64,000 bases of DNA, taken from IMG/VR virus record IMGVR_UViG_3300021399_000097, one strand, 5' to 3'. Each line of letters begins with the position of its first letter. Within the stretch, counting starts at the first letter, position 1. The notes below the pieces were generated by a model. It worked only from the letters and a program-made list of their open reading frames with translations. It was not told the origin of the DNA and did not search any database. Of this stretch, positions 10,976 to 53,934 are shown piece by piece. The translations under genes were made by a program, and so were the position numbers. This DNA is from a virus. Lineage: Duplodnaviria > Heunggongvirae > Uroviricota > Caudoviricetes.

Positions 10976-11764
10976 ATGCTTAATGATTTCTTAAAAAAGA
11001 ACATTACAAGTCAAGCTGCTTATATTCAGGCTAATGGTTATGGCTACGGCCAAGTTGAACCAAATCACCTCTCTGGCCAGGCAACAAAAGAAGTTTACGC
11101 TCAGTTACCTGCTAAGAAAGATATTGACATTCTTGAAAATGGTCAGTTTGCAAAATATAATTATGCTGATGAAGTCGTTGATTTTGAAGGTCCAGGCGAA
11201 TGGATGCTCGTTTTCAATGAAATCAAACTTTATCGTGAACATCAGGTTGATGCTGAGTTTGCAATGATTAAAGATAACTATCAAGCTCGTGTTTATAGCC
11301 CATTTGGTGGCGATCGTGATGGTAATCCAGATACTGTTTGGACAAAGCAGTCTCGTTACTACAATGGCCAGGGTGTTGACGCAGCTGATGGTTCTATTAC
11401 CTTCAATGATGGTAAAGTCAAAGTTGGCGATAATGAATGGCCAGTTGATGATGTCACTGCTGCTCCTGATATGTATGAAATTCACTATAATGAAGATCCA
11501 TTCCATATTGAATCTCTTTATCGTGAAAAATTAATGCCAGAAAATGGTAGTTCTATGGTTCCTCGTCTTATTAAGACTCATGTTGGTGATATTTATACCA
11601 CTAATATGATTGGTGAAGAAGAAGTTGCTCTTAAAGATGAACTTTCTCCAAACGAGAAGGGTATCCTTTCCAAGAGTGGCGATGGTTCTATCGTATGGCA
11701 GGTTGTTAAAATCTATACTATGCCCGATCATCAACCAGGCGTAAAATTAATGCGTATTAAGTAA
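10976..11764 (+). CDS. Capsid-associated (decoration/minor capsid) protein, 262 aa, TAG-free
   Basis: Intact ORF between scaffold and major capsid genes; strong RBS; function inferred from position. Confidence 0.65.
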   Translation: MLNDFLKKNITSQAAYIQANGYGYGQVEPNHLSGQATKEVYAQLPAKKDIDILENGQFAKYNYADEVVDFEGPGEWMLVFNEIKLYREHQVDAEFAMIKDNYQARVYSPFGGDRDGNPDTVWTKQSRYYNGQGVDAADGSITFNDGKVKVGDNEWPVDDVTAAPDMYEIHYNEDPFHIESLYREKLMPENGSSMVPRLIKTHVGDIYTTNMIGEEEVALKDELSPNEKGILSKSGDGSIVWQVVKIYTMPDHQPGVKLMRIK

Positions 11765-11783
11765 TTAGAAAGGAGAGAAGAAA

Positions 11784-12950
11784 ATGTTAGAGTTTAAAGA
11801 ATTACTTCAATTAATGAAAGTTGCTGCTAAAGCAAATGCTTCTGCTCCTACTTCTTATAACTGGAATGGTCAGAGCCTTAGTTGCGACGCTATTAATGAA
11901 ACCCTTCGTCAAGAACTCAATGAACTTTGTGGTTCTAACGCTGCTTATCGTGAAAATAAGAACACTATCTTTAGCTTAATTGAACAGACTCTTGATGAGG
12001 TTCTTCCTAAGAAAGTTACCGAGACTTACATGCAGTTCGCTGATGTTAAAGTTTTCGGCCAGGGTGATAAACCCATTTTCCGTAGAAAGCTCAACTCCAA
12101 TAACCGTGCAAAGCAGTTCATCACTCGTGTTGCACATGCTGGTGTTTATGAGGTTTTCAAACTTGGACGTAATGAAGAAGCTTTTGAAGTGCGCACCAGC
12201 GTAATTGGTGGCGCTGCTCAGATTGGCTTTGAAGAGTTCCTTGATGGTCGTGTTGATTTCGCAGAAGTCACTCGTATCGTTTATGAAGGAATGGAAGAGC
12301 TTATCGCAAAAGAAGTTGCCCATGCTCTTAAGGCTTCTATCAATCAGCTTCCTCCAGCAAATCGCGTTGCTGCTAACGGATTTGATGAGAGTGAATTTGA
12401 CCGTCTCTTAAATATTGCTTCTAACTACGGCACTCCTGCAATTTACTGCACATATGAGTTTGCTGTTAAGATGATTCCTCAGGAAGCTTGGAGATATACC
12501 GAAGGTATGAAACAAGAACTTTGGAACAGTGGCCGTCTTGCAAACTACAAAGGCCGTACTGTTACTATTCTTGAACAGGGTTTTGAGGATGAAACCAATG
12601 AGCGCAAGGTTATTGACCCAGGTTATTGCTGGATTATTCCTTCTGGCGCTAATGGCAAGCCTGTGAAGATTGCTTTTGAAGGCAATACTTTAGTTCGTGA
12701 AGATGACAACCGTGGCGACTGGTCCAAAGAGATTCATGTCTATCGTAAGGTCGGCGTTGTTGCTATGCTCACTAACGATATTTGCTGCTATGTTGATACT
12801 TCTCTTATGGGTCAGATGGATCAGTGGTACCTCAATGGTGTTACTGGTAACGTTATCACCTATGATGGACGTTTTGATGGCGCAGTTAATGAAGATGGTT
12901 CCGAAGCTGGCTCTGAAGGTTCCGAGCCTGTAAATCCAGATCAACCATAA
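11784..12950 (+). CDS. Major capsid protein, 388 aa, TAG-free
   Basis: Position, size, strong RBS, high-expression-type codon bias and downstream hairpin. Confidence 0.85.
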   Translation: MLEFKELLQLMKVAAKANASAPTSYNWNGQSLSCDAINETLRQELNELCGSNAAYRENKNTIFSLIEQTLDEVLPKKVTETYMQFADVKVFGQGDKPIFRRKLNSNNRAKQFITRVAHAGVYEVFKLGRNEEAFEVRTSVIGGAAQIGFEEFLDGRVDFAEVTRIVYEGMEELIAKEVAHALKASINQLPPANRVAANGFDESEFDRLLNIASNYGTPAIYCTYEFAVKMIPQEAWRYTEGMKQELWNSGRLANYKGRTVTILEQGFEDETNERKVIDPGYCWIIPSGANGKPVKIAFEGNTLVREDDNRGDWSKEIHVYRKVGVVAMLTNDICCYVDTSLMGQMDQWYLNGVTGNVITYDGRFDGAVNEDGSEAGSEGSEPVNPDQP

Positions 12951-12983
12951 TTAATAATTAATAATTAAATATATAATTTACTA

Positions 12984-13012
12984 GGGGAGAGGGAGATAAT
13001 CTCCCACTCCCC
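12984..13012 (+). terminator. Hairpin, probable terminator after the major capsid gene
   Basis: GGGGAG-A-GGGAGA / TCTCCC-A-CTCCCC stem followed by T-rich sequence. Confidence 0.65.
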
Positions 13013-13048
13013 TTGATTGTTTTTATGAGGAAAAGGAGATAAAAAATT

Positions 13049-13588
13049 ATGCCAAAAAATTATTTTTATAATGTGAAAAATCGCAGTTCTAGCACTATTT
13101 TATATAAGATTCCAGAAGATGGTATCCGTAGAACTTTTGCCCCCGGAGAGATGAAAAGAATCTCTTACGATGAATTACTTCATTTAAGTTATCAGCCAGG
13201 TGGTCGTGAATTAATGGCCAATTTCTTACAGATTCAAAGTGATGGCGTGCTTCAAAGTTTGAATATTAAAGCTGAGCCAGAATATCATATGTCTGAAGTC
13301 CAGATTGTTGATATGTTAAAGAATGGTTCATTAGACCAGTTTCTTGATTGTCTTGATTATGCTCCTATTGGAGTTATTGATTTAATCAAAAAATATGCTG
13401 TTTCCCTTCCACTTTCTGATTATGATAAACGTCAAGCATTAAAGAAAAAGACTGGTTTTGATGTTGATGCAGCAGTTGCTAATTCTGGATTAGAGCCTGC
13501 GGCCGGTGCTGAGGGAGAAAAGGCTGAAGAAAGTGCTCCTTCTGCTCGTAGAACAAAGCCTAATTATAAAGTAGTAAATCAAGGGTAA
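13049..13588 (+). CDS. 179-aa hypothetical head-region protein, TAG-free
   Basis: Intact ORF with AAGGAG RBS. Confidence 0.75.
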   Translation: MPKNYFYNVKNRSSSTILYKIPEDGIRRTFAPGEMKRISYDELLHLSYQPGGRELMANFLQIQSDGVLQSLNIKAEPEYHMSEVQIVDMLKNGSLDQFLDCLDYAPIGVIDLIKKYAVSLPLSDYDKRQALKKKTGFDVDAAVANSGLEPAAGAEGEKAEESAPSARRTKPNYKVVNQG

Positions 13589-13608
13589 TTCATAGAAAGG
13601 AGCGAGCT

Positions 13609-14199
13609 GTGAACATGACTCAATTCGCAGATATATATAATCGCTTTCTTGGAAAAATTACTGATGACATGTATGTTGAATTGACTCCTGAAGATACAAT
13701 TAAAGATTTGCGTAATCTTTTAATTGATGCATTACCTGGTTTTGAATTTCCTCGTCGCAATTTATATGATTATACAATTAGTGAAGAAATTAAACGTGAA
13801 GATCAAGTTGAGGATGGAGAATTCATTATTGGTATTCTTTGGGATGATGATCTTGAAGATGATGAGTTAGGGGAAACCCCTTTATGTGTAGTAGAAAAAT
13901 CTACTTTCGCAGCCGAATTAAATTCGGAAGAGATAAATATTTTAGCCATACTCATGATGATAGGATGGGTACAGCGACAAGTTACTTCTATTGAAAATAC
14001 TCGTATGAAATATAGTGGGCCAGATTTTAAAATGACTTCGCAGGCAAACCATTTATAGAAACTTTTAGGTTTATTAGGAGAATGTCAGCGATAGTCACAT
14101 CATATGCAACGGCTTTATAAAAGAAGAAAGATAAACCATGCGGATATGAATTATCAATCCAACTGGGATAATGCGTTAGGCCATGGCGTATACTACTAA
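13609..14199 (+). CDS. 196-aa putative head-tail connector (adaptor) protein
   Basis: Read through 2 TAGs to TAA; function inferred from position. Confidence 0.6.
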
Positions 14200-14491
14200 A
14201 TATGGTTTTGAGTTTTCAAGAGAAGAAGTAAGTAAAGAAGTAATTCGTTTAACCAATCAATTATGGAAGTTAATTCCTATGAGAGAAAATAATGAAGATT
14301 GGGATAAACAATTGGAAACAGTTATTATAGATATTGCGGGCAAGGATGAAATATTTCTCCATGACTCGCATTTTTTATAGCTGTTATCTAAATTAGAAGG
14401 ATTACGAATTGTTGATGTAGAGTTCGCAATCTATAGAAAGACTGTATTTGAATGTATTAATTTGATAAATGAAACCATTTCGTTAGATTAA
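14183..14491 (+). CDS. 102-aa hypothetical protein
   Basis: One TAG read through; TAA stop. Confidence 0.65.
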
Positions 14492-15596
14492 TCCTCTTGG
14501 CATTGGGCCAGCGAGAACATTAAAACTAATGGGAAGTCGTTTAGGTAATACGGACTTTCCGCACTATTACAAAGATACAGTTGAGAATGCGAACCACTTG
14601 GCTAAAGCATTATCTATGCGTGGCGGTTTTCCTCAACAAGAAAGAATGATTAGAGATAAGCGAAAATCATTAGATAAAGCAACAATGTATTCTTATCAAG
14701 CTTGTTGGGTAAAAAAGATTTAGGATAAAGATAGTTTAGATGTTACTGATTTGAATTATCCATTAGCAAGAGCTTTAATTAACCCTGATAAGAATAAAAC
14801 TGATTATGATGATAAAATTATTTCTATTGGTTTTGAACATGATTTTCATCCAGGCGATGTATTTGAATGGTGTAGAACTCATACCTATTGGTTAGTCTAT
14901 TTATAGGATGTTGATGAAATAGCCTATTTTAGAGGAGAGATTAGACGCTGTGATTATCAGATAAACTGGTTGGATGAAGATGGTAATGAGTTAAGTACTT
15001 ATGCAGCTATTCGTGGACCAGTAGAAACTAAAATTAATTTTATTCAAAAGCATTAGATAAGCATTGATGAACCTAACTATTCTTTGCATATCTTATTGCC
15101 AAGAAATGAAGATACAATGAAATAGTTTAAACGCTATTCAAAGTTTTATTTAAAAACAGCTGATGCACCAGATGATAGTATCTGTTGGCGTGTTGAAGCT
15201 ACCGACTCAATTAGTACAAAAGGGATTCTTGAAATAACAGCAGTTGAATATTATGCTAATGAAACTGAAGATGATGTTGAAAAAGGGCTAGTGGGTGCTT
15301 TTGTTGAAAAAGTAAAAGAGCCAGAAATTAATCCAAAATTAGATATCGTTGGACCAACCTTTATTAAACCAAAAGTTGAATATACTTATTATGTTGATAA
15401 TAAGGAACCAGGAGATTGGTATATAGATGGGCCGAAGGTACCAGTTAAATTAGAAAAATATACTACTGAAGGTGGAACTCCTGCTGTTAAAGTCACTTGG
15501 ACCAGTTCATATAGTGGGCAATTTACTTTATGGTTTGGTCAAGAAGGACATGAAAAGAATTTCACAAAAACTATTGTAGTTGAGTCTTTGTTTTGA
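14469..15596 (+). CDS. 375-aa putative head-closure/neck protein (alternative start 14529)
   Basis: One frame through TAGs to TGA; function inferred from position. Confidence 0.6.
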
Positions 15597-15616
15597 GTTA
15601 AAGGAGATTAAGAGAT

Positions 15617-16258
15617 ATGAAGATTGAAAGTTATCATCCACCGAAAAGCAGTTTTTTATCTATAAATAAAGACATGCGCTTATTAGTTGATAAAATACTT
15701 TCTAATGATAGATTATGTAAATTATTATATTATACAACTAAAGATGCATTAGAAAAACCAAAAGTTCCAGATAATGAAAAAATTGCTATGTTTAATAAGG
15801 AAATTAGAATTGTTCCTAAATTATATGTTGATAAACCAGTTTTAAATTATATTATTATCAGTTTTGATAATTTTGTTGAAAGTGAGAATCCAGAGTTTAG
15901 AGATAATATAATTGAATTTGACATATTATGTCATTTTGATTAGTGGCAATTAAAAGATTTTGATTTGCGGCCTTATCGCATAGCTGCAGAACTTGATAGC
16001 ATGCTTGATAAAAAGAAACTTACTGGTATTGGTAAGGTTGAATTTTATGGAGCAAAAGAAATTTTATTAACAGATGAATTTGCTGGATTATGTTTAATGT
16101 TTAAAACATATCATGGTGAAGAAGATAAGAAGCGTATGCCAAATCCTGCTGATTAGGATAAGTTTGAAAAAGAATTCAAAAAAATGATTGAAATTCAAGA
16201 AGAATAGGCTAAGGAGTACCCACATGGATTATAGGCTAGCCTTAATGTGCGGGAATGA
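15617..16258 (+). CDS. Putative tail-completion/terminator protein, 213 aa if all TAGs are read through (196 aa if the TAG at 16205 is a stop)
   Basis: Joined ORF fragments; position just before the tail-tube region. Confidence 0.6.
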
Positions 16259-16949
16259 CCTGCCAGTCCCAGAATGTTAGTTAGTTATACATCAACCTTC
16301 AATCAATGAAATCGCTTTAATTGGAGACAAAGTTTTTTTTAAAGCTACTCAAGTTTTATGTTTACATAAAACTATGTTTGCGGAGGACAAAACAGTTTTA
16401 TTAAACATAAATAATTTTTAGATATTTATGATGATAATACAAGATGAAAAGGCGAAAGATAAAAAGGATGCAGTAAAATAGGTTCTTACTTTATTGTTTC
16501 CTAATTATAAAGTTTTATTTACTCCCAAGTCAATTTTATTTCAAACCGAAGATAATGAATCCATTATTGTAGATGAAAATAATTTTGAACAACTTTAGGA
16601 AGTCTTTCGTTTAGTGTTTTGTATGTAGAATGCTCCGATGGATTAGAGAGCATTTAATCCAGAAGGAGATAAAGCAAAGGCAATAGCAAAAAAGTTAATG
16701 CGTGGTAGAGAACGCATAGCGCAAGAAAAAGGCGAAAATAACTCTAGTATTTTTAGTTAGTATCTTTCTACATTGTCTATTGGTTTACATCAGCCATTAA
16801 CATATTTAAAAGAACTAACTATGTTTTAGTTGTATGACCAAATTGAACGATTTATGTTATGGGTCAACTGGGATTTAGATGTCAGGATGCGCCTAGCTGG
16901 TGGTAAACCTGAAGACAAACCAGACAACTGGATGAAAAATATTCATTAA
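16224..16949 (+). CDS. 241-aa hypothetical tail-region protein, absent from the ORF track (8 TAG=Gln)
   Basis: AAGGAG RBS, ATG 16224, TAA 16947-16949, no TAA/TGA in between. Confidence 0.8.
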
Positions 16950-16972
16950 AATCATAAGGAGGAAAATACACT

Positions 16973-18034
16973 ATGAAATTTGGTGTTCGTGAGATTTGTG
17001 ACGTTGTCCTTCGTGCCAAGGCTCGTCAGCAAATTGGTAACAAAATTTTCTATAAGAATGAACCTGTCATTTATTTTGATACATTAAAGACCTCTAGTAT
17101 GGAAGGCCAGGCAACCACTGTTTATGCACAGGGTGGTCGTGGTAATGCTCGTCTCGTTGCTTGGGAAGGTGAACGTACTATTACCTTCACAATGGAAGAC
17201 GCTCTTATTTCTCCCGAAGGCTTTATGATTCTTTCTGGTGCCGGTCTTGTTGAAGCAACTTCTGCAAAACCTGTGTATCAGCATATGACTGAAACCATTG
17301 ATGGTAGCGATATTTCTATTAACACTGCTGAAAGCACTGTTACTATTACTCTTAAAAACAAGCCATATATGCCTGCTGACAAGGGTGAGAACTTTGCTTA
17401 TGTTATGTTCATGCGCGATGGTGAAATCGTAACTGAACCTTACATTCCAGTACATGAATCTGAAGATTATACTGTTGAAAAGATTGAAGGCGCTACTCCA
17501 GAAGAAGATAGATATCAAATCATTGTTCGCGCCCATGAGTGCTATGATGATGCTCATAATGGCGAAGCTGTTGATTATGTCATCGGACAGATTGACCAAG
17601 TGAAATTTGATAGCGTTCTTGTTGACTTCTATGTAGCTCGCGAAGCTGCTGCAAAACAGATTGAGATTACCCCAGATAAGTTCGGTGGTAACTTCTATCT
17701 TGAAGCTTCTACTTTATTCCGTGATACTAATGGTGTTGATATGCCTGCAGAGTTCATTATTCCTAACTGCAAGATTCAATCCAACTTCACATTCACAATG
17801 GCATCTTCTGGTGATCCTTCTAGCTTCACCTTCACAATGGATGCTTTCCCTGATTACACTCGCTTTGATCATAGTAAGAAAGTTCTTGCTGCTATTCAAA
17901 TCATTGAAGAAGCTGGGTCTCAGGATCTCCACCGTGGTGCTACACCAAATGGTGACTATAAAGTTGACGGCGTTGCTGGCGTTGACACTCATGAAGACCT
18001 TTGGTCTAATCGTGTTGAGAACGCAGGCGGTTAA
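16973..18034 (+). CDS. Major tail (tube) protein, 353 aa, TAG-free
   Basis: Strong RBS, high-expression-type codon bias, downstream terminator, Phe/Thr-rich beta-strand motifs (FTFTMASSGDPSSFTFTMD), position upstream of the tape measure gene. Confidence 0.8.
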   Translation: MKFGVREICDVVLRAKARQQIGNKIFYKNEPVIYFDTLKTSSMEGQATTVYAQGGRGNARLVAWEGERTITFTMEDALISPEGFMILSGAGLVEATSAKPVYQHMTETIDGSDISINTAESTVTITLKNKPYMPADKGENFAYVMFMRDGEIVTEPYIPVHESEDYTVEKIEGATPEEDRYQIIVRAHECYDDAHNGEAVDYVIGQIDQVKFDSVLVDFYVAREAAAKQIEITPDKFGGNFYLEASTLFRDTNGVDMPAEFIIPNCKIQSNFTFTMASSGDPSSFTFTMDAFPDYTRFDHSKKVLAAIQIIEEAGSQDLHRGATPNGDYKVDGVAGVDTHEDLWSNRVENAGG

Positions 18035-18046
18035 TTTAATTAACTT

Positions 18047-18080
18047 AAGGGAAAGAGATTTAATCTCTTTCCCTTTTTCT
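18047..18080 (+). terminator. Rho-independent terminator
   Basis: AAGGGAAAGAGATT / AATCTCTTTCCCTT stem plus T-run. Confidence 0.85.
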
Positions 18081-18099
18081 TTTTAGGTGGTGAAAATTA

Positions 18100-19302
18100 A
18101 TGGCAGGAATTGGAGTTGAAGCAGCAGCTCAGGCTGAATTAGAAGAAGCTAGTACACAAGAATTTACTGAAGCATGGACTAAAGAAACTGGTGGTTTATT
18201 AGCATAGCTATAGAGTTTTTCTAATTAGTTAAATACATGTTATCAAAATATTATTTAGACAGATGGAATAATGTCTTAGGCTGAAGCTAGACGATAGTAG
18301 ATGAAATCAATGCTAGAAAAAAATTATATGGAAAGAACTAAAAAAGATACAGCAGAAGATTTAGCAAAAGAAATTAAAAAATATGTATATGCAAGTTCTA
18401 AAGGCGGAGCTGATATTTTAATTAAAGATGGTTTAGAAAAAGCAGAAATTTATTCAATGTTATGGCAAGCTAGGTCAGATACTTATAATATTGGATATGG
18501 TAAAGAAAGTCAAGAAATGCTAACTAAAACTGCATTGTCTGGTATGAAGTTAGTATATCAATTAAGAGCAATGATAACAAATGAACCAGAAGAAAAAATG
18601 GTAGTTACTTTTGCTGAAGGTGGGTTTAGAAAAGAATCATAGAACGTAAAAGCTTTGACAATTCCTATGTCCAAATTTTTAGATTCAGCAATTCATGCAA
18701 CAAATGAATTAATTGAATTTAATCAAGAAGCTTTTTCTAAACAATTATATGGAGATCCATATAAACTTAAATTACGTTCAAATAGAACAGTACTAGATTA
18801 GTTAAAATAGATTGAAGGTAGTCAAGTTACTGATTTAATAATAAAAAATGGTAATGGACAAGAATAGTCAGTTACTAGACAATTATATGAATAGTTAATT
18901 ACTAATAGAAATTTTTTATTGCGCTCAGACAGTAATTATGATGTTATTAGAAAAGGACAGAGTGGTGCGGTTGCAGAATCTTTAGTAGATGCAGCTTTTA
19001 ATAATAGAGATTTTCAATATCAAAAAGATAGTGCTGTTTGGTATTAGGAGCCAGATGTAACAGCAAATGGATAGGGATATAGTGTAAAAAATTTTATTGG
19101 AGGAAATCCTACTCTGTTAAGAATCAATAGTTTGCATACTGTTATTGATGGATTAATAGCGCAATTATCACGCACTGATCTTTCTACAAGTGAAATAATT
19201 CAAAATATACGGACAGAAGTTTTTAAAGTTACAGAAGGATTAGATGCAGCAACAGAATAGTTTTTAGAAAAACTGATTTCTACTGGAATAGGATTTGGAT
19301 GA
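18100..19302 (+). CDS. 400-aa hypothetical protein (15 TAG=Gln) with a possible degenerate PD-(D/E)XK motif
   Basis: ATG 18100 to TGA 19300-19302 without TAA/TGA; EPDVTANGQGYSVKNF. Confidence 0.7.
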
Positions 19303-19304
19303 TC

Positions 19305-19333
19305 TTGACAATTTATAAAAAATATGTTATACT
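19305..19333 (+). promoter_or_regulatory. Internal sigmaA-type promoter with extended -10
   Basis: TTGACA-17-TATACT with TGt extension; AAGGAGG RBS downstream. Confidence 0.85.
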
Positions 19334-19366
19334 TAAATTAAGTATAGAGAAGAAGGAGGCCACATT

Positions 19367-19900: not shown

Positions 19901-20028
19901 TTATGAAAATAGAATATAGTTTTAATATATTAAGAGTGCAATTAAAATGGATGCGTAGCTTATTAACCAGATTAGGTTAATATAACTATTTTATTTTTTA
20001 AAAATAAATAGGAATGATTAAAATATAT

Positions 20029-20064
20029 AAAGGTTATTGGAAATTGTTCCAATAACCTTTTTTT
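20029..20064 (+). terminator. Rho-independent terminator
   Basis: AAAGGTTATTGGAA / TTCCAATAACCTTT stem plus T-run. Confidence 0.85.
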
Positions 20065-20105: not shown

Positions 20106-23100
20106 ATGGCAAAAGCATTAAATGTTAGTTTAGCAGTAACTGCCGATACCGGTCAGGCTAAAGCGGCGTTACAATAGTTATAGCAACAATTAACTCAATT
20201 AACAGCGAGTACTAAAAATATTTCTTTTGGCGGTTCTTTAAAACAAGGCGCTGATGAAGCAATAAAATCTGTTGCTCAATTACAAACAATGCTTAAAACT
20301 TCTACTAATACAATGACAGGTAATTTAGATTTAACTAAATTTAATTAGTAGATTAAAGCTAGTGGGATGTCATTAAGTGATTATAAATAGTAGTTATCAT
20401 TAATGGGGACTGCTGGTAATAAAGCTTTTGCACAATTAGCTAATTCTATTTCATAGGCTGAAATCCCTATTCGTCGTTCTAGCGCAGCTTTAAAAGAAAT
20501 GGGGACAGTTTTATAGAATACAATTCGTTGGCAGTTGTCTTCAAGTTTAATTCATGGCTTTATGGGGACAATGCAACATGCTTTAAGTTATGCACAAGAT
20601 TTAAATGAATCATTAAATAAAATTCAAATTGTTACTCAAGCCAGTGATGAACATATGGCTAATTTTGCAAAAAGTGCAAATGAGGCTGCTAAGAGATTAA
20701 GCACAACAACAACAACTTATACTGATGCTTCTTTAATCTACTACCAATAGGGTTTAAGTGATAAAGAAGTTGCAGAACGTACTGAAGTTACTATTAAAAT
20801 GGCTAATGCTGCAGGAGTATCGGCGCAAAAAGTTTCTGACTAGATGACTGCAGTATGGAATAACTTTGATGATGGCTCTCATAGTCTTGAATATTATGCT
20901 GATGTTATGACAGCTCTTGGTGCTGCCACTGCATCTAGTACAGATGAAATCTCAACTGGTTTATCAAAATTTGCCTCAGTAGCTGATACTGTTGGTTTAA
21001 GTTATGAAAATGCTGCGGCTGCATTAGCAACTATTACTGCTACAACTCGTAACAGTGCTGATACTGTTGGTACTGGTTTAAGAACTTTATTCTCTCGTTT
21101 ACAGAGTGTTAAACTTGGTGAAACATTAGAAGATGGTGTTGATTTAACTAAGTATTCAGCCGCCATTGCTACAATGGGAGTTAACATTCTTGATGTAAAC
21201 GGCGAACTTAAATCAATGGATTAGATTATTGATGAAATGGGAGCTAAATGGCAGTATTTAAATAATACATAGAAAACTGCTATTGCTCAAACTGTTGGTG
21301 GTGTTCGTCAATATACTAATTTAATTGCATTATTAGATAATTATGACTTTTATAAATAGAATCAATAGATTGCTTTAAATAGTGAAGGTACTGTACAACA
21401 ATAGGCTGATATTTATGCTAAAAGTTGGGAAGCAGCATAGAAACGTGTTAAAGCCTCTGCTGAGAGTATTTATTCAGATTTATTAAATGATGATTTCTTT
21501 ATTGAAATGAATAATGCTTTAGCTAATACCTTAGATTATATACATGATGTTATTGAAGGTTTTGGTGGATTAAAAGGAGTCTTATTAACAATTGGTACGA
21601 TTGCTAGTACTTCTTTATAGGGAACTTTAGCAAAGGGTTTAACTAATATTGCCTATGATTTAAAAACATTAACTCCTAAAGGACGTCAAGAAGTTTATGA
21701 TTTACGAGCCGAAGGAGCTAAATAGCTTGCTAATATTGGCGGTCCAATGGGAGCTGTTTATGCATAGCAAGGAAAAGCCCAAGCTACATATGCTGAAGTT
21801 GCTCCAAGATTAACTGCTGAGCAATAGATGATGGCTTAGTTTATGATGCAATAGCAAGCTGAATAGATTAAAGATGTTGAACGAGCAAATGATTAGCTAA
21901 AAAAAGTTAGATTAGATAATGGTAGGAAGATGTCTAATACAGCTAAAGATTACCGTACTGCAACTGGTAATATTTAGGGATATGGTAATATAAAAAGTTT
22001 AGCTGAAACATTAGGAAAAAGCGAAGGACGTATTGAATCATTCTTTAACTCTTTTGGTGAAGCTCCTGAAAATGTAGACTAGGTTAAAACAGCTATTGAA
22101 GGATTAAAATTATCTTTAGAAGATTTTGGAAATATTTCAGATACTGCTAAGCAAGGATTTGAAGAATTATAGTAGGCAATGGCAGATTATGAAAAAGGTC
22201 CTTCTGATGCCGCTTTAGCAACAGTTAAAGATAAATTTTAGTCATTAGCTAATATATTTTATAACGATGATGGATCTTTTTAGGAAGATAAATTTAAAAA
22301 TTTACTTCAACAATTAGGCATAGATTTAGATAATAGTGATGTAGCTGAAGTATTTGATAAAATAAAAAATGGAGCACGTGAAGTAGGAGAAGCAGAAGGA
22401 GAAGCTGCGATTCGTAGTAAACAATTAGAAGCTTCTACTGATTCTTTAACTCAAAAAATGAGGCAACTTGCTAATACTAATTATAGCGTAGCAGATACTC
22501 TTGTTGCTTTTGGTAATTTAGCAATGAGTATTATGATGGTTACTAATAATGTTAAACAAATGCACGATATTATGACAGATGATAGTATTGAAACATTTGG
22601 TGAAAAATTAGCTTAGATTGCCCCTATAGCTCTAATGACTGGCATTCAGATAGGTAATATGTTTAAAAACCTTGGCCCATTATTATCTTTTGGTGGTAAA
22701 GTAGCTAGTACATTAATTCCCTCTTTAGCGGAAGTTATTTCACAAGGTGGTGGAATAGCTGCAGTATTGGCTTCATTAAGCGGATTGGCAGCAGTTCTTG
22801 CTCCTATAGCTGTAGTTATTGGATTGATTGTTAATTAGATGCAGCGAATAGATTCAACTGCTGATCGTATTAAAAGATTAAATAATGAATTAGATTCATC
22901 TAAAGAAGCTGCTAGTAATGCCAAAGCTGAGTATGATGATTTAATTTCTGCATTTGGTGCTTATGATGAAGCTATTAATAAAACAAGTGAGTTAACAGAA
23001 GGTACAAATGAATATGCTGCTGCTTTAGCAGATGCTAATGCTTAGGCTAGAGAATTAATTAAAAATTATGGATTATCATCTAGTGATTGGACATATGAAA

Positions 23101-39780: not shown

Positions 39781-39799
39781 TAAAGGAGGAAAAGGAATA

Positions 39800-41412: not shown

Positions 41413-41479
41413 TCCATATACTTAAAAAAATGAATAATAATGGATAAAAAACTTTTAGAGGAAGGAGAAAAGGTAAAAG

Positions 41480-42463: not shown

Positions 42464-42480
42464 AGAAAGGGGAAAAAATA

Positions 42481-44163: not shown

Positions 44164-44225
44164 TTAAAGGACAGAATTGGTTAACTGATTTCTTTTGATT
44201 TTTATATTCCATTGAAGGAATATTT

Positions 44226-44262
44226 AATAAGGGTAAGGTATATATTCCTTACCCTTATTTTT
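44226..44262 (+). terminator. Hairpin, probable terminator
   Basis: AATAAGGGTAAGG / CCTTACCCTTATT stem plus T-run. Confidence 0.75.
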
Positions 44263-44293
44263 ATTATATTAATTGGAGAAAGGAGTATATATA

Positions 44294-47200
44294 ATGGCAG
44301 AAATATTTCAACCTGTAAGAGGTACGGAAAGCGCAATTAGTTAGTTACCAATCCGTGAAGGTTATGTCTATTTTGCTTATGATAGCGGTAATATTTACCT
44401 TGATAAGCAAGGAACGCGCTATACCATTGGTGGTGGCGCATCTGGCATTGCTTATACCGCAGGTAATGTAAATACAATTATTAAAAACTCACCTGATGAT
44501 ACGGATTACCATTATACTATCAAATATGCTGCTTTAGAAGATACTACTGTCACATTAAAACCAGATACTCTTATATTAAATGCTGATGGCAGATTTTTCA
44601 GAGTATTATCAGCCGACCCAGCGTCTCAAGAAATCCAAGCTGTGTTACTTGCAGTAAGCGGAACCGGAGGAGGCTCTGGTGGTGGTGGAGGCGGCGGAGA
44701 AAGTCCATCAAGGACTGATGTAGCTTTAGATTTCAATACCAATACTATTAATTCTTATATGACTTTTGTTTATGGGCAAGATTCTGATGCAGAGTTTACT
44801 CCAAAAGCCGAATATGATAATTATGTTAATTTATTATTTGAAGTTGTAAATGCTACAACTAATGAAAAAGTTTTTGAGACTTAGGCAATTGGAGTGCCAG
44901 TTAATAAAGTCTATAAGTTTAATATGGGTCAAATCCCTTCTGGGGAAAACCTGTTAATGACTGTAACTTTAATTTCTCCAAATAGCTTATCCCATCCTAC
45001 TGGTTTTAGAAAACAATTTACTGGATTAAATATTGTTGAATTAGGTATTGCAAAAGATAATTCACAGTTAACAAATACAGTTTTAAATGGCGCAGCTACC
45101 GTTAACTACTTTATTAAAGGTGGTAATAGTTTAGCATTAACTATTTATCCTTCTATTGATGGTATATTAGCAGATAACTTAGTAGCAAGTGTTAATCCAG
45201 GCACTACAGTGCGCTCAGTGCGTATTCCGGCTCAACCTCATGGTGTTCATACTGTTTCTTTAAAACTTGGTGCCGCAATTAGAGGTAATGTTGTTTATAG
45301 TGATGAAATCACTTATGAATTGGCATGGGCCGACCCTAATGAATCAACTCCATTGATTTGGGTGCAAGAATATGCTGATACTGTTATTCAATATGAGAAA
45401 TGCGTTATTAAATATATGGTTTATGACCCAGCTAAAGTTGCTACTGGTTCAAGAGCTGAAGTTCAGTTAATTGATAGTATTCTTAATGAAGAAATTGCTA
45501 CAGTTTATCCACAATATTCTTCTAGTTCTATTGATTGGTTAACTTGGGACTTAACTGAAAGCTATCATGTTGGCGCAAACCGTTTCCTTATTCAGTGTGG
45601 AACTGAAAATAAAGAAATTAACTTTAATGTTACTACAGAAGGGTCAAGAGACTTAGGTCTTGTTGATTCTGGCGCATTGATTTTAAACCTTTCTTCTGCT
45701 GGTCGTTCTAATGAAGAATCTGCCGCAAAGAGAGCTGCTTGGGGTTATAATTATGAAGATGAAATTATAACTACTACTACTTTTAAAGATTTTAACTGGT
45801 ATAACAATGGTTGGAAAAATGATAATGATGGAGCAGGTTCCTATTTATCTGTTGCTAATGGTGCTTCGGCAGATATTAACTTCACAACCATGGGCTTTAA
45901 TACTTAGAATCAATCTTATACTATTGAGTTAAGATTTAGAGTAAAAAATATTCAAGAGTATTCTACATTAGTTAAAACTTTACCATATTACTTTGTTCTT
46001 GATGAGAATGGAGTCCAGATGGAGAACTCCATGTATATTGAAGATATCAAGGCACAAGGATTAACAATTGCCACTGATAAAGATGGTAACTGGATTATGG
46101 ATGAAGCTAATTCTCCAAAGATTACTGAGCATGAAAAGGGCGTTTGCTTTAAGTATTATGATGAACAGACCAAACAAGGTTTATTCGTAGGTACTCAAGA
46201 AGCATATTTCAAAACTCCTGATACCACAGTTAACGTGCGTTATAAAGAAGATGAAATTATTAGTTTAACCATTACTGCAGAAGCAGGTGGATTATTATCA
46301 CTTTACTTAAATGGTATCTTAAGTGGTGCTGTTAGTATTGGTAATAATGGATTTACTCCTAATACTAATAAGTTTGAAATTAACTCTAAGTATTGTGACT
46401 TTGATATCTATAAACTTCGTGTTTATAGAGGTACAAATATCAAACCTTTAACAATGCCAGAAGTTATTCATAACTATATTTCTGATATTCATGATTTAAC
46501 TCTTTATGACCAGAACCAATTAACTAAAGATGATGATGCAACTGCTTTATCATTAGGTAAAATTAAAGCATATAATGATTTAATTATTTCTAACTTAGAA
46601 ACTCGTAGGAATCAAGGTCAAGTATTACTTGAAGAAGATTTTAATGCTTTAATGATGCCTTATGCGGTCATTGAAATTATTGATAATGATACTTCAATGC
46701 GCGACCCAACTAAGACATAGAGACGTACTGATGATGACCGTTTACCATATATTAAAGATGGTAATCGTTATTGTAAGATTACATTTGTTAATGCTGTTGC
46801 AGATGCTTTATTAGAGTTTGGTATGATAAATGAGGAAACTTATTATAGTCATTGCCCGAGCTATGTATGTATTGGCGCAGATATTAACGTTCAGGGTACT
46901 TCTTCACAAGGTTATCCTCGTCGTAACTTTAAGACCAAAATGAAGAGTGCTACTGGTAAGAAAGACGCTGAAAAAGTTACCCATGATGATTGGGGTTGGT
47001 TCTATACTAAAGGTTCTAAAGCTGGTAAAAGCTTTAAAAAGTGGAGTGTTGATAATAACTATGCTGCCACTAATAAGTTCACTTGGAAGATTGACTTTAT
47101 GGAGTCTTCTGGAACTTACAATACTGGTTTTGCTAACTTGATGGGTAAAATGTATGATTATCATCCATTAAATGATTATAACTTTGATGGTGTTTCTACT

Positions 47201-50200
47201 GCTGGTTTTCGTACTAGTGTTTATGGATTCCCACTTCTTGTTTTCCATCAGCACAGCAAACCTAGCGATAAACAAAAGATTGGTACTTCTTATGAAGATG
47301 AAATCTATGAGTATATCGGTAGATATAATATGAACTTAGACAAAGGTTCTAATGAATATTATGGTTTTGAAGTTGAAGGCGAACAGAAATATATCACATT
47401 AGAAGATGGTACGCATCCTGCAATTGCTGATATCGCTGAATGTTGGGAACTTTGTGATAACCAAGGTACTTGGACTTCCTTCACATATCCTAGTGATGCT
47501 GAAAAGAATAAAGATGTGCCTGGCCGCAATGACTATTACTTTGGTACTTATGAAAAAGATAGCTATGATGCTAATGGTAATCCAGTAGCAGAACCAAAGT
47601 TAGAAGTGATTAACCACTTTGAATATAGATATAGCGCCTATGGGGATGAACTTGATGCTTGTTATGATTATGACGTACAAGCATATCCAGAAGAATTAGG
47701 TACTTTTGGACAAATCAATCAGTATTTAAGAGATAAATACAGAAACTTAGAAGCTGTTACTACTTGGTTAGATTCTACTAATACTGCAAAAGCTACTAAT
47801 GAAGCTTTAGCAGCTCCTTATGGCCCAGTTGTGGTCAGCGCAGGTGGAGAAAATATCCCAGGTGAAATCACTTATACTGAAAACAATGGTATTTATTCTG
47901 CAACTTATTACAAAGATACTCCTGCATATCGTTTAGCAAAGTTCAGAACAGAATTACCAAAGCACTTTAATGTTGACTATTGTGCTATTTATTATGTTTT
48001 AACTGAATTGTTATTATGTTATGACTCTCGTGGTAAAAATCTGATGTTAGCTACTTGGGGACCAAAAGAAGTAGGTGGAGACTATATTTGGTATCCTATT
48101 TTCTATGATATTGATACTCAATTAGGCTTGAACAATATCGGTGCTACTCTTTGGGACTATGATACTGATGCAAGTAAAGATGGTACATTCTCTACTCCTT
48201 CTAGTATTTTATGGGTTAACTTCGCAGCCACTTATGAGACAAAGATTATTAACACATATAAAGAACTTCGTGCTTCTAAATTAACTGAAACAAATGTTGA
48301 AGGTGCTTACTTATGTGACCCTAGCGTATTTGATTCTTATGCAATGCGCGGTGTAAGACCTGTTATTGCTATTGGTTTAGATGAATATGTTAAGTATTTA
48401 AAACCATCTGTTGCTGGTTATTATAATACTAAAGGTGAAGTTGTTCCAGATAGCTATGGTTATGTTTATGCTATCAATGGTGACCGTATGTTATCTCGTG
48501 AACTTTTAATTAGAAATAGACTTAACTATCTTGACTCCTATTGGAGAGCTGGTGACTATTCTACTGAAGTTGTTTCTGGTGATGATGGTTGTGTTATTGT
48601 TCGTGCAAATGCTAACGCAGGTCAGACTTCTGACTTATTCTTAGATTCTAATTCCTTAAGTGAATTACCTTCTAATGCAAATGCTGGTAGTAGTTTAGCT
48701 CCATATCCTGTTGAATATTTAGATGCTATCCCAGAATATACGATTACGCCTTTCTTAAAACAATATGTTTTCACATTTATTGATAAGATTCCTTCAGGGC
48801 GTTCTGTTAAGTTCTAGGGTGAACCTGTTTAGGCTTATGTATCTGAATCAATTTTGGATGGATTTAAAAAGACTCCTAACTTATCACAACAGATTACTCG
48901 TATCCCAGGTCCTTCATACATTTCTAGTTTAGGTGATTTAAGTACAAAATACTTTGACCAATTCTAGATTCCAAGTGCAAAGAGATTACTTGATTTGACT
49001 CTTGGTAGTGATATTGAAGGATACTATAATGGACGTAGTATGGCTAACTTTATCTTGAACGATAGTTTAAAGACTCAAGATGGTAGTAGTTTAAATGTAA
49101 ATAGAAAAACTTTATTACAAAAAGTTATTCTTACAAATATGACTCAATTGAATTATGCTATTGATGTTTCTGGTTCTGAAAAGTTACAAGAGTTCCGTGC
49201 GCTCGGCACTATTATTCAAGGTGTTGTGTTTGCTGAAGGTGCTCCATTAGATACAGTTCATTTACCAAAGACTGTTAATGGTATTGGTTTAGTTGAAGCT
49301 AAAAACTTAACTCACATACTCACTTCTACTCCTAAGATTAGAAAGAGTATTGCTGAGGGTTCTGCTTTCTATCCACATGAATCTTATGAAGGATTGTACT
49401 TAGAAGGCATTACTGATGTTGATGATAGCGCAGTTACTTTAGAGAATCAAGATGGACAATTAACCTGGAAGAACTTAGGTAATGTTGAAAGTGCTTCTAG
49501 TTTAATAAACATCAAGATTGTTGGTGGTAACTTAAAATATGACTCTTATAAGTTATTACGTAAAGCAATTGTCGCAAAAGAAAAAATAGCTGCTTCCGGC
49601 ACAAGATTAAAGATTAACCTTGAAAATATTGATTGGTGTCCATATACTCAATTAAGTGTTTATGATGAGTATGATTCTAATACTAATTATTATCAGGTTA
49701 CTGACCATAGTACATTTGTTCCTTATACTTATGATGAAAATACTTGGCAGCAATTATTGTTGAATGGTAAGATTTATACTTATGAATACTCACCAGACCA
49801 AGAAATTATTACATCATTAGACTTATTAGATTTCTTCCTTTAGGACTATGAAAATGGTTTAGCAACTACAACTCACTTAAATCACTATACTAATATGGAA
49901 AGTAGCACTGCTGCTTTACCAAGATTAACTGGTGTTATTTATGTTGAAAATACTGAACAAACTCCAATTCAAGAAGATACTTTAACTAGTGTTTATGCAG
50001 AAAAATGGCCTGAATTAACTATCTTTGCAAAATATGTTAGAGAATCTAATATTGTAAAATATGTTCAAGCTACTGATGATGGTCGTGAAAATGAATTAAG
50101 TGTTATCCGTTTAGCAAGTACTGTTGAGCATCCTGTGTTAACAACAGTTGTTCCTTCAAAGGCTCACTATGACTTTATTGGTTGGAGTACTGATATTGCA

Positions 50201-51304
50201 GGTAATAATATGTTCTTAAATTATGACTTTGAAAATAGGACATATCCAAATGCTGAAACTGAATTAGCAGCATTCACTTATACTATGTCATAGAATGTTT
50301 TAGTGTTATATGCACAATTTAAAATTCATGAGCATAATGTTTACTATTATGTTGGTGATGAGTTAATAGGTGGCGCACCTGTTAAAGTTCCTTATAATAC
50401 AGCATTAGTTGGCCCAAGCGTAATGCCTTATAAAGATGATTCAGATTTAGCATTAACAAGAACTTATAAGTTTAATGGATATTCAATGAATTCAGAAGAT
50501 ACTACTGAAGTAACTCAAGCTCCTCCTGCTATTGTTCTTCGTGACTTAAATCTGTATGCTACATTCGTAGAAGCAGATGTTCACGATAACGTTATAACAG
50601 ATATGAGTTGGTTTAACTTTAGTCCAATATCTCAAACATTATCTGTTGCAAAAGCAGGATTAACGGGTAAAATTACACTTCCTGCACAATATAACGGTCA
50701 AGATGTGTTAATATTTGCTACTGCAGGTATTGAATAGCCTGGTGTAACTCATATCTTCTGGGAACGTGGAAGTAAAGTCAATACTCTTAGTTAGAGTTGT
50801 TTCGCTGGTAAAGTATATCCTAACTTAATGTATTTTGAAATCCCAGTAAATAACTTCACAGTCCCTTATCATGGCTTCTCAGGATGCACTAATTTATTTA
50901 AGAGTGATAAGATAACTCAAGAAGATGTTGATAATTTCTTTGGTAGAATTACTGCATATGGTGAGAATGCCTTCGCGCAGACCTCTCCTAATTTTGCTAC
51001 TGATACATTCTTACATGATAAAGAATTAAGATTACCAGGGAATGTAGTTGAATTAAGTAACCGTGCTTTCAGTAGTACGTTAATTCGCAGCGTAAGATTT
51101 GGTAATGTTGATGACCCATTCACTTTAGACCCAGGTCAATGGGGCACTGGTATCTTCCAAGGTTCCGGTTATGGATAGTTATTAGTATCTACCACTCCTG
51201 TTCCTGTGACATTCTATTACAATCCAATTATGGGCTTAGATTCTGACACGATTACTAATAAATTGTCTTGTGGTTCTATTGATACTATTGAGGCAACAGG
51301 TTAA
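44294..51304 (+). CDS. 2336-aa multidomain virion-associated protein: LamG-like, CotH-like kinase, LRR, InlB-B-type repeats, BspA-type LRR
   Basis: Eight fragments in one frame; VQGTSSQGYPRRNFK, YIGRYNMNLDK, YDSRGKNLML, WYPIFYDIDTQLG; FIGWST repeat; C-terminal FSGCTNL/GENAF/LSNRAF. Confidence 0.8.
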
Positions 51305-51322
51305 TAGATTGGAGGCTAATAA

Positions 51323-51526
51323 ATGAAAAGATAGGTTTTTTACAGATATCTTGGAACTAATGGAGTTATTGAGTCTCCAGTCCATTTAGAAGATATTTAT
51401 TATGTTAGAATAGTTTTATTAACTGCTGACAAAGATAAAGTCTTAACCGATGGAATTGAGAGAAAACAATCAGTCCGTGTTCCAGAAGAGGAAATTGGAA
51501 ATTGGTGGGAAGTTCCGGCCAATTAA
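51323..51526 (+). CDS. 67-aa small protein (fibre-associated chaperone candidate)
   Basis: GGAGG RBS; TAG at codon 4; TAA stop. Confidence 0.65.
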
Positions 51527-51560
51527 GATTATTTAAATTACAATTATTTTAATAAATAAA

Positions 51561-51585
51561 GAGGGAGAAAAACTTTTTCTCCCTC
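51561..51585. terminator. Intergenic hairpin
   Basis: GAGGGAGAAAAA / TTTTTCTCCCTC stem; no clear T-run. Confidence 0.45.
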
Positions 51586-51618
51586 TCAAAATATGATAGA
51601 AAGGAAGAGAAAGAATCT

Positions 51619-53934
51619 ATGATTACAAAAATCACTTCTGCTAATGATATAGAACTTTTTGCTCCTAGATTTGAACAAATCACTAATGCTTTAGCAGTTT
51701 CTGAACCTACTGTTCGTGGTGAAATTGTTTCTGCTATTGGAAGTAAAGTAGATGAGCTTGGTGGTAGTGCTAATATAAAAGCATATTTTCAATCTGTTGT
51801 ATCTGAACAAAAAGTAAGAAGCATTTCCAAAGAAGTTTTAGTTGATGCTTTTACTTCTGTTTTATATGAAAACTCTACAGCTAATGGAGGCGACTTAAGT
51901 GCCGCAAATATTGAAGCTGGTATTGAGTTAGCAAGCGATGTTGCTGATGCCGCTGTTGCTAAAGCAAAAGAAGTTGGCATTGTTATTGATTCTATTGAAA
52001 GTTATTTTGGTAATTTAAAAGCAATTGCTGCTTTACAGACTTCTAAATTTGAAGATGGTAAGTTCCTTCTCGTTACTCCTGCTGATGAACCTTATTTTGA
52101 AATTGATGCTAATACAAGAGTTATCAATATTCCTGCACATTTCAAGAAATATGGTGTTGGCGTACAAGGAGACCATGAGGCTGAATTAATTGTCTTTAAG
52201 ATTGATAGATATTTTGACCATCAAGACTTTATGGAAACTAAGATTGCCATTAACTGGAACTTTACTCCTAATGGTTCTCGTGTTCCCGCATATGAAGAAA
52301 CTCAGACTCAAGTTGCTTTTGCAAAAGATGATGAGTTAGAGCCAGGTTATGTCGTATTTGGTTTCTTTATCACAAATGAAATGACACCTGTTAAAGGTAC
52401 TCTTCAGTTTGCAGTTACTTGCTATGATACTGATAATGACCTTATCAACTATAGCTTTAACACTCAAACTGCTACCTTAGCAATTAATGAAGGTTTAACT
52501 TTAGAAGACCCAACAAAGGTTAAGAGCGTGGCCGCAGCTGCTTTAGCACGTCTTTCTAATAGTGCTTACAATCCTGATGGAGTTACTCCTATTGCTGACC
52601 CAGAGTGGCAATTAGGTGTTCTTAATGAAGAAAACAAACCTCTTGGACTTCCTGCAAAACTTAACTTTGTTATGGACGCTCAAGGTGTTGAAGCAGAAAC
52701 ATTATCAATTATCACTCAAGCCTATGCTCCTGGTCTTGTTGATATGAAATATACTTGGTATTCTGCTGTTGAAGATGGTATTCCTGCTGTCGTTCAGCCT
52801 GCTGAAATTATTACTAAGCCAAGTGATTATTTTGTTACTACTGATACAGAGCCAAATGATAAGTCTGTCTATTATGTAAAAAATGATGATGGCACTATTA
52901 ACACAACTCCTCTTGCTGGTGATGCTATTCAAGAAGCATTTGATGACCCAACAGTTGAAGTTTATGAATTAGGCTCTTCTTACAATGCTCTTAAGGCTGG
53001 CAGATATCAAGTAAAAGCACAGGCTGAAAAGATTGCTGTTCGTCCTAATGGTACTTATATTAAGACCACTAGTAACGAAATTGAAAGTAATGTTTGCTTA
53101 GTGCCTCCTGCTGCTAAACCAAATGTTTCTTTAGTTGTTGATACTGCTTATGAAGATGACTATGAAGTTATTGAAGAAACCAATTATAAGTATATTTCTG
53201 CTAGTGTTCCTCCTGTGATTAAAGCTGTTGTTAGTAGCTCTAATGATGAACCACTCGGCGCTGTTGCTGTTGAGGTTTTAAAGAATGAGCAGATTAGCGA
53301 CTTAACAGAAGAAGATATTCTTGCAGGCGATTATACATTTGAGATTCTCCCAGAAAGTGGAGAAAAACAAGTTAATGCTGCTGGCGTTACTGAAGAAGGC
53401 GAGTATCGTGTGCGTGCAATCAACCGCCGTAACCATACTTATAATGTCTCTGAACCTTCTGAAAGTATCGTAACTTCTTTCATTGCTCCAAAGATTACTA
53501 AACTTGATATTAGCACTATTGATGGTACTGATAAAGTTTATATGCTTGAAGAAGGCGCTCGTCCTGAAGGCTCTAATGAAGAAGGTCGCGCAATTGAATT
53601 AAATAACACTTATCCAGAACGTTTATTCGTTATTGATGATAAGACTGAAGCTGCTAATAAGTATGCAGATGCAATCACTTCTTACTATGTTGAAGAAGTT
53701 TACAAAGATCCTGCTACTGGTGAATGGAAGCTTTCTTATGCTGAGACCAATCCAGATCCAGATGAAATTGAAGTTCTCTTTGATGCTACTTATGTTGATG
53801 CAGACCATCCAGATGGCGCATACACCTTTGTAATTAACAAAGATTCTGGTATTTATCGTATTCGTACAGAAAATCGTTATCACGGAACTCTTCGTATCGG
53901 TTATACTGACGTATTTAAAGCAGTTCTTGTATAA
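51619..53934 (+). CDS. 771-aa acidic structural protein with a BppU-N-like upper-baseplate domain and Ig-like C-terminus, TAG-free
   Basis: FEIDANTRVINIP..GVQGDHEAELIVFKIDRYFD..GTLQFAV. Confidence 0.7.
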   Translation: MITKITSANDIELFAPRFEQITNALAVSEPTVRGEIVSAIGSKVDELGGSANIKAYFQSVVSEQKVRSISKEVLVDAFTSVLYENSTANGGDLSAANIEAGIELASDVADAAVAKAKEVGIVIDSIESYFGNLKAIAALQTSKFEDGKFLLVTPADEPYFEIDANTRVINIPAHFKKYGVGVQGDHEAELIVFKIDRYFDHQDFMETKIAINWNFTPNGSRVPAYEETQTQVAFAKDDELEPGYVVFGFFITNEMTPVKGTLQFAVTCYDTDNDLINYSFNTQTATLAINEGLTLEDPTKVKSVAAAALARLSNSAYNPDGVTPIADPEWQLGVLNEENKPLGLPAKLNFVMDAQGVEAETLSIITQAYAPGLVDMKYTWYSAVEDGIPAVVQPAEIITKPSDYFVTTDTEPNDKSVYYVKNDDGTINTTPLAGDAIQEAFDDPTVEVYELGSSYNALKAGRYQVKAQAEKIAVRPNGTYIKTTSNEIESNVCLVPPAAKPNVSLVVDTAYEDDYEVIEETNYKYISASVPPVIKAVVSSSNDEPLGAVAVEVLKNEQISDLTEEDILAGDYTFEILPESGEKQVNAAGVTEEGEYRVRAINRRNHTYNVSEPSESIVTSFIAPKITKLDISTIDGTDKVYMLEEGARPEGSNEEGRAIELNNTYPERLFVIDDKTEAANKYADAITSYYVEEVYKDPATGEWKLSYAETNPDPDEIEVLFDATYVDADHPDGAYTFVINKDSGIYRIRTENRYHGTLRIGYTDVFKAVLV

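Follow-up and report, generated by a model that had tools for sequence, protein, structure and literature searches.

The DNA analysed here, hereafter the window, is a stretch of 64,000 nucleotides from the IMG/VR virus record IMGVR_UViG_3300021399_000097, which belongs to a large rumen siphophage related to phAss-1 in which TAG is read as glutamine (Gln). With this code the window consists of one long co-oriented morphogenesis operon followed by a minus-strand nucleotide-metabolism block. Six genes located between positions 10976 and 53934 contain no TAG codon. These genes are listed below with their TAG/CAA/CAG counts, together with three genes of the same operon used for comparison.

10976-11764, plus strand: conserved head-module protein of 262 amino acids, encoded directly upstream of the capsid gene; 0/4/8 (TAG in 0 of 12 Gln codons)
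11784-12950, plus strand: major capsid protein with a predicted HK97 fold, assigned with Foldseek; 0/4/11 (0 of 15)
13049-13588, plus strand: putative head-module protein of 179 amino acids; 0/4/4 (0 of 8)
16973-18034, plus strand: tail tube (major tail) protein, assigned by homology and synteny; 0/5/7 (0 of 12)
41480-42463, plus strand: distal-tail-region protein of 327 amino acids; 0/10/0 (0 of 10)
51619-53934, plus strand: distal-tail-region protein of 771 amino acids; 0/13/6 (0 of 19)
16224-16949, plus strand: TAG-rich neighbour, comparison gene; TAG in 8 of 16 Gln codons
18100-19302, plus strand: TAG-dense gene of 400 amino acids, between the tube gene and a chaperone-like gene; TAG in 15 of 31
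20106-31004, plus strand: tape measure protein of 3632 amino acids, matching several tape-measure PHROGs; TAG in 104 of 236

The counts made by hand in the first-pass annotation (0 TAG among the 76 Gln codons of the six genes pooled, 8/16 and 15/31 in two neighbours, and a TAG-dense tape measure gene) were reproduced exactly. In most neighbour genes TAG represents 20-83% of the Gln codons, and in the whole set of 36 window genes it accounts for 284 of 855. The TAG share is heterogeneous among these 36 genes (chi-square 114.7, 35 degrees of freedom, p = 2e-10). When the identity of the Gln codons was shuffled 20,000 times, six TAG-free genes with at least eight Gln codons were obtained 0 times, the maximum being four. 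Gene by gene, the probability of finding zero TAG at the window-wide rate ranges from 0.0004 to 0.04.

When IMG/VR was scanned with the capsid protein, 56 loci with 54-100% identity were retrieved, 31 of them recoded and 25 with the standard code. The recoded loci were grouped into 18 lineages sharing less than 90% nucleotide identity in the capsid gene, and counts were taken from lineage representatives. In the orthologues of 10976-11764, the capsid gene and the tube gene only 11 of 593 Gln codons are TAG (1.9%), versus 817 of 2345 (35%) in the other genes of the same loci, and the difference between these three genes and their neighbours is significant in every one of the 18 lineages (Fisher p < 1e-3). 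A weak depletion was observed in the orthologues of 13049-13588 (20/135, 15%). The conserved Gln columns of the three depleted genes contain a mixture of CAA and CAG in every column, which indicates that synonymous change is saturated and that TAG is specifically excluded. TAG was found at conserved Gln columns in 0 of 149 cases in 10976-11764 (nine columns), 1 of 135 in the capsid gene and 2 of 60 in the tube gene; the corresponding values are 96/195 for TerL and 68/211 for the portal gene, and all nine conserved Gln columns of 16224-16949 carry TAG in some lineage. In some lineages, such as L005 (TAG/CAA/CAG = 0/15/1), the capsid gene has drifted to CAA, and TAG is still absent.

The first-pass annotation had linked the avoidance of TAG to putative high-copy virion genes. 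The avoidance proves to be real and not a product of chance, and its link to the bulk virion genes is borne out. It had also named recent transfer from standard-code donors as an alternative, according to which the TAG-free genes would have been acquired from such phages and would have had no time to accumulate TAG. For the capsid-module and tube genes this is excluded, as they are TAG-free in 18 lineages with 54-100% capsid identity and saturated synonymous sites. On these sequence comparisons, chance, recent transfer and local mutation bias are all ruled out as causes of the absence of TAG from the three genes. The TAG-free state is a conserved, selected feature in three of the six genes, weak in one (13049-13588) and lineage-specific in the two distal-tail genes.

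The relation with general codon bias has been analysed by principal-component analysis of relative synonymous codon usage, leaving out the Gln codons. The first component (PC1) explains 38% of the variance among the window genes and opposes CGT, CTT, GCT, TCT, GGC and TTC to AGA, TTA, TCA, GGA, GTA and ATA, loadings that are familiar for highly expressed genes of low-GC bacteria. The highest PC1 scores correspond to the tube (5.0), the capsid (4.9), 10976-11764 (4.5) and 51619-53934 (3.0), with all other genes below 0.8, including 13049-13588 (0.77), 41480-42463 (-0.59) and 18100-19302, the lowest-scoring gene of the window (-3.0). The TAG fraction is negatively correlated with PC1 in the window (rho = -0.69, p = 2e-5).

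A simple codon index built from the PC1 codons was applied to independent loci. The orthologues of 10976-11764, the capsid gene and the tube gene have the highest index in 15 recoded relatives (0.67-0.77), and they are also at the top in 12 standard-code relatives (0.58-0.66 vs 0.32-0.51), indicating that the codon bias of the three genes predates recoding. Each of the 15 recoded lineages tested shows a negative correlation between the codon index and the TAG fraction (median rho = -0.64), and so does the complete relative G005 (201 kb; loci L093-L103) genome-wide, with rho = -0.62. The comparison of TAG fraction with a codon-adaptation axis, suggested in the first-pass annotation as a check, has thus given the expected trend in the window, in its relatives and in G005. 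Over bins of rising index, the TAG fraction in G005 falls through 45, 37, 32, 15, 4.5 and 3.0%, and CAG rises from 3% to 73%; high-index genes favour the G-ending CAG yet exclude the G-ending TAG, so it is specifically the stop-like codon that is avoided.

The identity of the three depleted genes was examined by structure and homology. A capsid model built from a 22-sequence alignment (predicted local distance difference test, pLDDT, only 60) was compared with the PDB by Foldseek, and at E <= 1e-3 all 33 among the matches listed are HK97-type capsid proteins or encapsulins; on this model, 11784-12950 is identified as the major capsid gene. In the Bacillus phages Kirov, Izhevsk, Thrax5 and KoopaTroopa (E = 1e-15 to 1e-17) the homologues of the tube protein bear the annotation tail tube or major tail protein; in the Lactococcus 949 group, whose members are long-tailed, they are recorded as structural protein. 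The gene also matches PHROG 2729 (virion structural protein) and is situated just upstream of chaperone-like genes and 2 kb ahead of the tape measure gene. The tube model is poor (pLDDT 57, with the conserved N-terminus unmodelled); its top five Foldseek matches are tail tube proteins, with weak values (E = 2e-3 to 5e-3), and on the same poor model no VIA-align match reached a Z of 5 and a BFVD search likewise gave no clear fold. It is an established rule that the length of the tape measure sets the length of the tail (lambda gpH), and a protein of 3632 residues would correspond to a tail several times that of lambda, with many hundreds of tube subunits. The tube protein would thus be very abundant.

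The sequence of the 10976-11764 product is not helical or scaffold-like, and no firm family was found for it in Pfam, PHROGs, PDB sequences and profiles or the ESM Atlas. A resemblance to Phage_cement, which would point to a decoration or cement role, was below threshold and is a lead only. For 13049-13588 the same searches assigned no firm family either, and no informative PDB match was obtained.

The first-pass annotation had predicted, from their lack of TAG, that 41480-42463 and 51619-53934 encode abundant virion proteins. Single-protein pattern scans of IMG/VR detected no close relatives of either gene, and no firm family was assigned to them in Pfam, PHROGs, PDB sequences and profiles or the ESM Atlas; a resemblance of 51619-53934 to BppU_N remained below threshold as a lead only. 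Homologues of 51619-53934 were taken from a protein collection, and five syntenic contigs were compared. Its 87%-identical orthologue (L062) has TAG at 2 of 22 Gln codons and a codon index of 0.66, and more distant orthologues have 5/15, 4/22, 13/26 and 9/34. Partial orthologues of 41480-42463 have 5/8, 2/8 and 2/7. Apart from the 87%-identical one, the orthologues of the two genes have TAG shares of 18-62%, so both genes are TAG-free as a feature specific to the window lineage. The stretch 40168-53934 is TAG-poor overall (16/138, 12%), and at this local rate the probability of zero TAG is 0.28 for 41480-42463 and 0.09 for 51619-53934, which makes neither a clear outlier.

It is for these distal-tail genes that acquisition from standard-code phages is plausible: the whole region is TAG-poor, both genes are without close relatives in the pattern search and have TAG-rich orthologues elsewhere, and distal-tail modules are commonly exchanged. 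However, the flanks of 51619-53934 and its L062 orthologue are syntenic and recoded, and its raised codon index (0.68) predicts by itself, from the G005 gradient, about 1 TAG in 19 codons, so that its zero count fits its codon bias. As a general explanation of the TAG-free genes, recent transfer is highly improbable. The abundance prediction has to be divided. It is not sustained for 41480-42463, whose orthologues use TAG, which lacks expression-type codon bias (index 0.44) and whose zero count, left unexplained by codon bias, is about the chance outlier expected among some 30 genes. For 51619-53934 it agrees with the raised expression-type codon bias of the window sub-lineage (fourth of 31 genes on PC1), yet the orthologues carry TAG, even the 87%-identical one. 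The gene following 41480-42463 is also poor in TAG:

42481-44163, plus strand: protein of 560 amino acids; TAG in 1 of 18 Gln codons, codon index 0.55-0.67 here and in three syntenic relatives

In those three relatives the TAG counts are 2/17, 2/16 and 1/18. The G005 gene 99239-100924, taken as an orthologue by size and position alone, with no alignment, has 7/21.

Transcription signals were located around the depleted genes, and near-consensus promoters flank the operon.

3198-3226, plus strand: near-consensus promoter with 11/12 consensus matches, at the head of the morphogenesis operon
18047-18075, plus strand: strong intrinsic terminator (13-bp stem and T run), directly after the tube gene
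19305-19333: near-consensus extended -10 promoter, after the TAG-dense gene 18100-19302

Evidence at the RNA level consisted of Logan contigs from runs that were found via positions 9400-19300. Contigs of four RNA libraries span 9.5-18 kb, with a roughly twofold higher word depth at 9.6-13.2 and 16.9-18.0 kb and almost nothing past 18.4 kb, although conserved genes attract contigs of relatives and depth cannot rank genes. As a weak hint, the RNA-library contigs, which come from three studies, become sparse near the terminator, at about 18.0-18.4 kb. Regarding translation signals, the TAG-free genes have good Shine-Dalgarno sites, and so do the portal and tape measure genes, with only a weak correlation (rho = 0.36).

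The first-pass annotation had interpreted its counts as a stoichiometry device, in which the leakiness of TAG sets the yield of each protein, the low-copy essential parts being kept low and made subject to the code switch and the bulk subunits remaining free. The direction of the trend fits this proposal, as the bulk genes have no TAG at all and its density peaks in the tape measure and baseplate-region genes, and regulation of a like kind was proposed by Borges et al. (bioRxiv 10.1101/2021.08.26.457843). Replication-type blocks are TAG-free in G005, which probably reflects a temporal code switch in the clade. However, the number of TAG codons tracks gene length and not copy number: the portal gene has 5, TerL 7 and the tape measure 104, and portal and tape measure are both few-copy proteins. 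From these counts, no single per-TAG termination probability p seems to fit, since a usable yield of full-length tape measure, (1-p)^104 >= 0.1, needs p <= 2.2%, and a gene with 5 TAG would then be changed by only about 10%. Moreover, TAG is present in 31 of the 36 genes, including nrdD, nrdG and gmk, so that no special gated set is apparent in the window; enrichment of TAG towards the 5' end is absent, and the strong terminator after the tube gene together with ordinary promoters can set protein ratios conventionally. That TAG density sets stoichiometry is consequently unlikely, and this part of the first-pass annotation is not supported.

Another possibility is that the bulk genes are TAG-free so that their translation does not have to wait for an active suppressor tRNA, giving capsid and tube a head start. 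TAG-free genes are by definition translatable in either code, and G005 contains TAG-free genes of average codon bias (62673-66668, where the index is 0.44 and 52 Gln codons include 1 TAG, and neighbouring long blocks also nearly TAG-free), which points to a timing-type class in the clade. Against this, the three genes lie inside one co-oriented late operon amid suppression-dependent genes, with the portal gene upstream and the connector genes between them, and RNA-library contigs join the capsid gene and 9415-10956, in which 6 TAG codons make up 25% of the Gln codons. In addition, it is hard to see what purpose capsid protein would serve in the absence of portal and other head parts, and over the whole G005 genome TAG declines gradually as codon bias rises, which is not expected from a two-state rule. 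A head start for the bulk virion genes is thus quite improbable. The TAG-free genes of average codon bias in G005 may constitute a second, timing-related class apart from the bulk virion genes, both forces being compatible.

The explanation considered probable is that TAG is the worst Gln codon and is purged by selection in proportion to expression, without acting as a stoichiometry device. A single C-to-T change turns CAG into TAG and would feed TAG into all genes, and in this AT-rich genome TAG would drift to about 35-50% of the Gln codons in ordinary genes. Its decoding would rely on the phage suppressor tRNA(CUA), presumably in competition with the host release factor 1 (RF1). Every TAG would have a small cost, either a truncated product by RF1 termination or a slower step if the suppressor tRNA is limiting, and this cost would grow with the number of protein molecules made. 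Capsid, its upstream partner 10976-11764 and tube would be the proteins made in the largest amounts, from which selection would remove every TAG, and the same selection would produce their strongest optimal-codon bias. The outcome would be a balance of mutation, selection and drift with the preference CAG > CAA > TAG. Both the source of the cost and the copy numbers are expectations of this model. The proposal of the first-pass annotation that TAG is slow or leaky is plausible.

Several observations weigh against selection by expression. The high copy number of 10976-11764 is suggested by its position and codon bias alone. The gene 13049-13588 (index 0.54) fits poorly, being TAG-free in the window and having 15% TAG in relatives, and the G005 gene 190627-193938 has 5 TAG at a codon index of 0.78. 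The contigs mentioned above join the capsid gene to a TAG-containing gene. No context sign of RF1 competition was found, as TAG shows no 5' or 3' bias inside genes (mean relative position 0.49 vs 0.51), and no TAG-specific read-through context either, as the +4 base of TAG is distributed much like that of CAG, although not like that of CAA; differences at the -1 base reflect gene-level codon bias. No tRNA gene, including that of the suppressor tRNA(CUA), is present in the 64-kb window; tRNA(CUA) is encoded by G005 (186653-186727) and by phAss-1. Finally, a crAss-like family annotated as 'tail tube' prefers TAG (Borges et al., bioRxiv 10.1101/2021.08.26.457843), so the rule of TAG avoidance may fail elsewhere.

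A broader proposal, made here tentatively and rather doubtful at present, is a two-tier translation economy in which the bulk virion proteins would be written in codons of abundant host tRNAs, and the low-copy proteins in A-ending codons and TAG, read by phage tRNAs. G005 has 32 tRNA genes, one of them for tRNA(CUA), and the others mostly have U34 anticodons, for TTA, AGA, TCA, GGA, GTA, ACA and CAA; A-ending codons dominate the low-bias genes. If such an economy exists, TAG would belong to a class of codons that depend on phage tRNAs, and for uncultured recoded phages the virion copy number could be predicted directly from sequence by means of TAG fraction and codon index. One G005 tRNA is called by ARAGORN with an odd four-base anticodon (gtag).

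The recoding of stop codons in phages of the gut and rumen is commonly interpreted as a means of timing late or lytic genes. Borges et al. (bioRxiv 10.1101/2021.08.26.457843, later Nature Microbiology) described code-15 and code-4 gut phages and suggested that selection enriches or depletes the recoded codon. Their TAG-to-Gln phages resemble the window phage in infecting standard-code hosts and in the uneven use of TAG among families. However, they tested solely families that prefer the recoded codon (lysis genes, crAss 'tail tube'), read the pattern as lysis timing and did not report depletion in capsid genes; in the window phage the depletion affects bulk virion genes within the late operon and is tied to codon bias, and TAG occurs in nucleotide-metabolism genes. 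In the code-switch model of Ivanova, Yutin and Borges, early and replication genes are TAG-free, whereas in the window TAG is found in nrdD, nrdG and gmk; G005 has long TAG-free blocks.

The phage phAss-1, of the proposed Phassvirus group (Babkin et al. 2023, PMC10607447), is similar to the window phage in its capsid (50% identity) and tube (about 50%) proteins, in reading TAG as Gln and in its tRNA(CUA) genes. Its TerL and tape measure genes are recoded, and its capsid gene has TAG/CAA/CAG = 0/0/16. The interrupted open reading frames were listed by these authors, with the TAG-free capsid gene neither analysed nor explained. The window phage differs in its origin from bovine rumen or gut samples and is distant kin. 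An amber-reassigned Crassvirales genus from Egypt (bioRxiv 10.64898/2026.08.21.746148) has a capsid gene without the alternative codon, which was called a surprise. That case is a single genome of an unrelated order, the authors invoke diversifying selection on capsids and not expression cost, and a comparative or codon-bias test is not given. In the ciliate Oligohymenophorea sp. PL0344 (PMC10553269), UAA and UAG, both reassigned, occur genome-wide and are fewer in highly expressed genes, which the authors explain by translational inefficiency or stronger selection for canonical codons. The ciliate has a eukaryotic nuclear code with an altered eRF1 and no competing host release factor, whereas the code of the window phage is imposed on a standard-code cell, where RF1 competition is expected, and the depletion is near-total (1.9% vs 35%).

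The window phage clearly exemplifies, for phages, a principle already known, the purge of the worst codon from the most expressed genes, and not a new regulatory device. To the usual reading as a timer a second force is added, in which the recoded codon acts as a costly codon that is kept from the most translated genes even inside the late operon. As a caution, a TAG-free gene need not be 'early' or 'foreign'. Absence of TAG also provides a sequence-only hint to unannotated virion genes made in bulk, and the efficiency of natural amber suppression is bounded, as a tape measure with 104 TAG codons must be completed.

The public runs in which the window sequence occurs are metagenomes and metatranscriptomes of the bovine gut or rumen. 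Large Enterococcus siphophages, which use the standard code, have capsid proteins about 40% identical to that of the window. All 36 window genes end with TAA or TGA once TAG is read through, and TAG is never a terminator. At the TAG columns, Gln is the commonest residue in standard-code orthologues (TerL 99, portal 123, 14469 31, 16224 99), which confirms the assignment of TAG to Gln. In a standard-code lineage of IMG/VR (L020, L021, L027, L047 and L052), with 72-75% capsid identity to the window, there are 0 TAG in every orthologue. Several recoded lineages have 70-76% capsid identity to the window, a range that includes this standard-code group, and for this reason switches between the two codes seem to take place within short evolutionary distances in the clade.

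The remaining features of the window are the following.

Operon order: sigma-factor-like gene, TerL, HNH endonuclease, portal, head genes, connector genes, tail tube, tape measure, very large distal-tail genes
Minus-strand block after the operon: permease, deoxyribosyltransferase, nrdG, nrdD, gmk
7389-7745: small HNH or homing-endonuclease gene between TerL and portal, containing TAG

The listed TTG starts at 44273 (gene of 2343 amino acids) and 54663 (gene of 716 amino acids) are without a Shine-Dalgarno match, and the true starts of both genes are probably slightly downstream. The position of the small endonuclease gene is kept in nearly all relatives, both recoded and standard-code.

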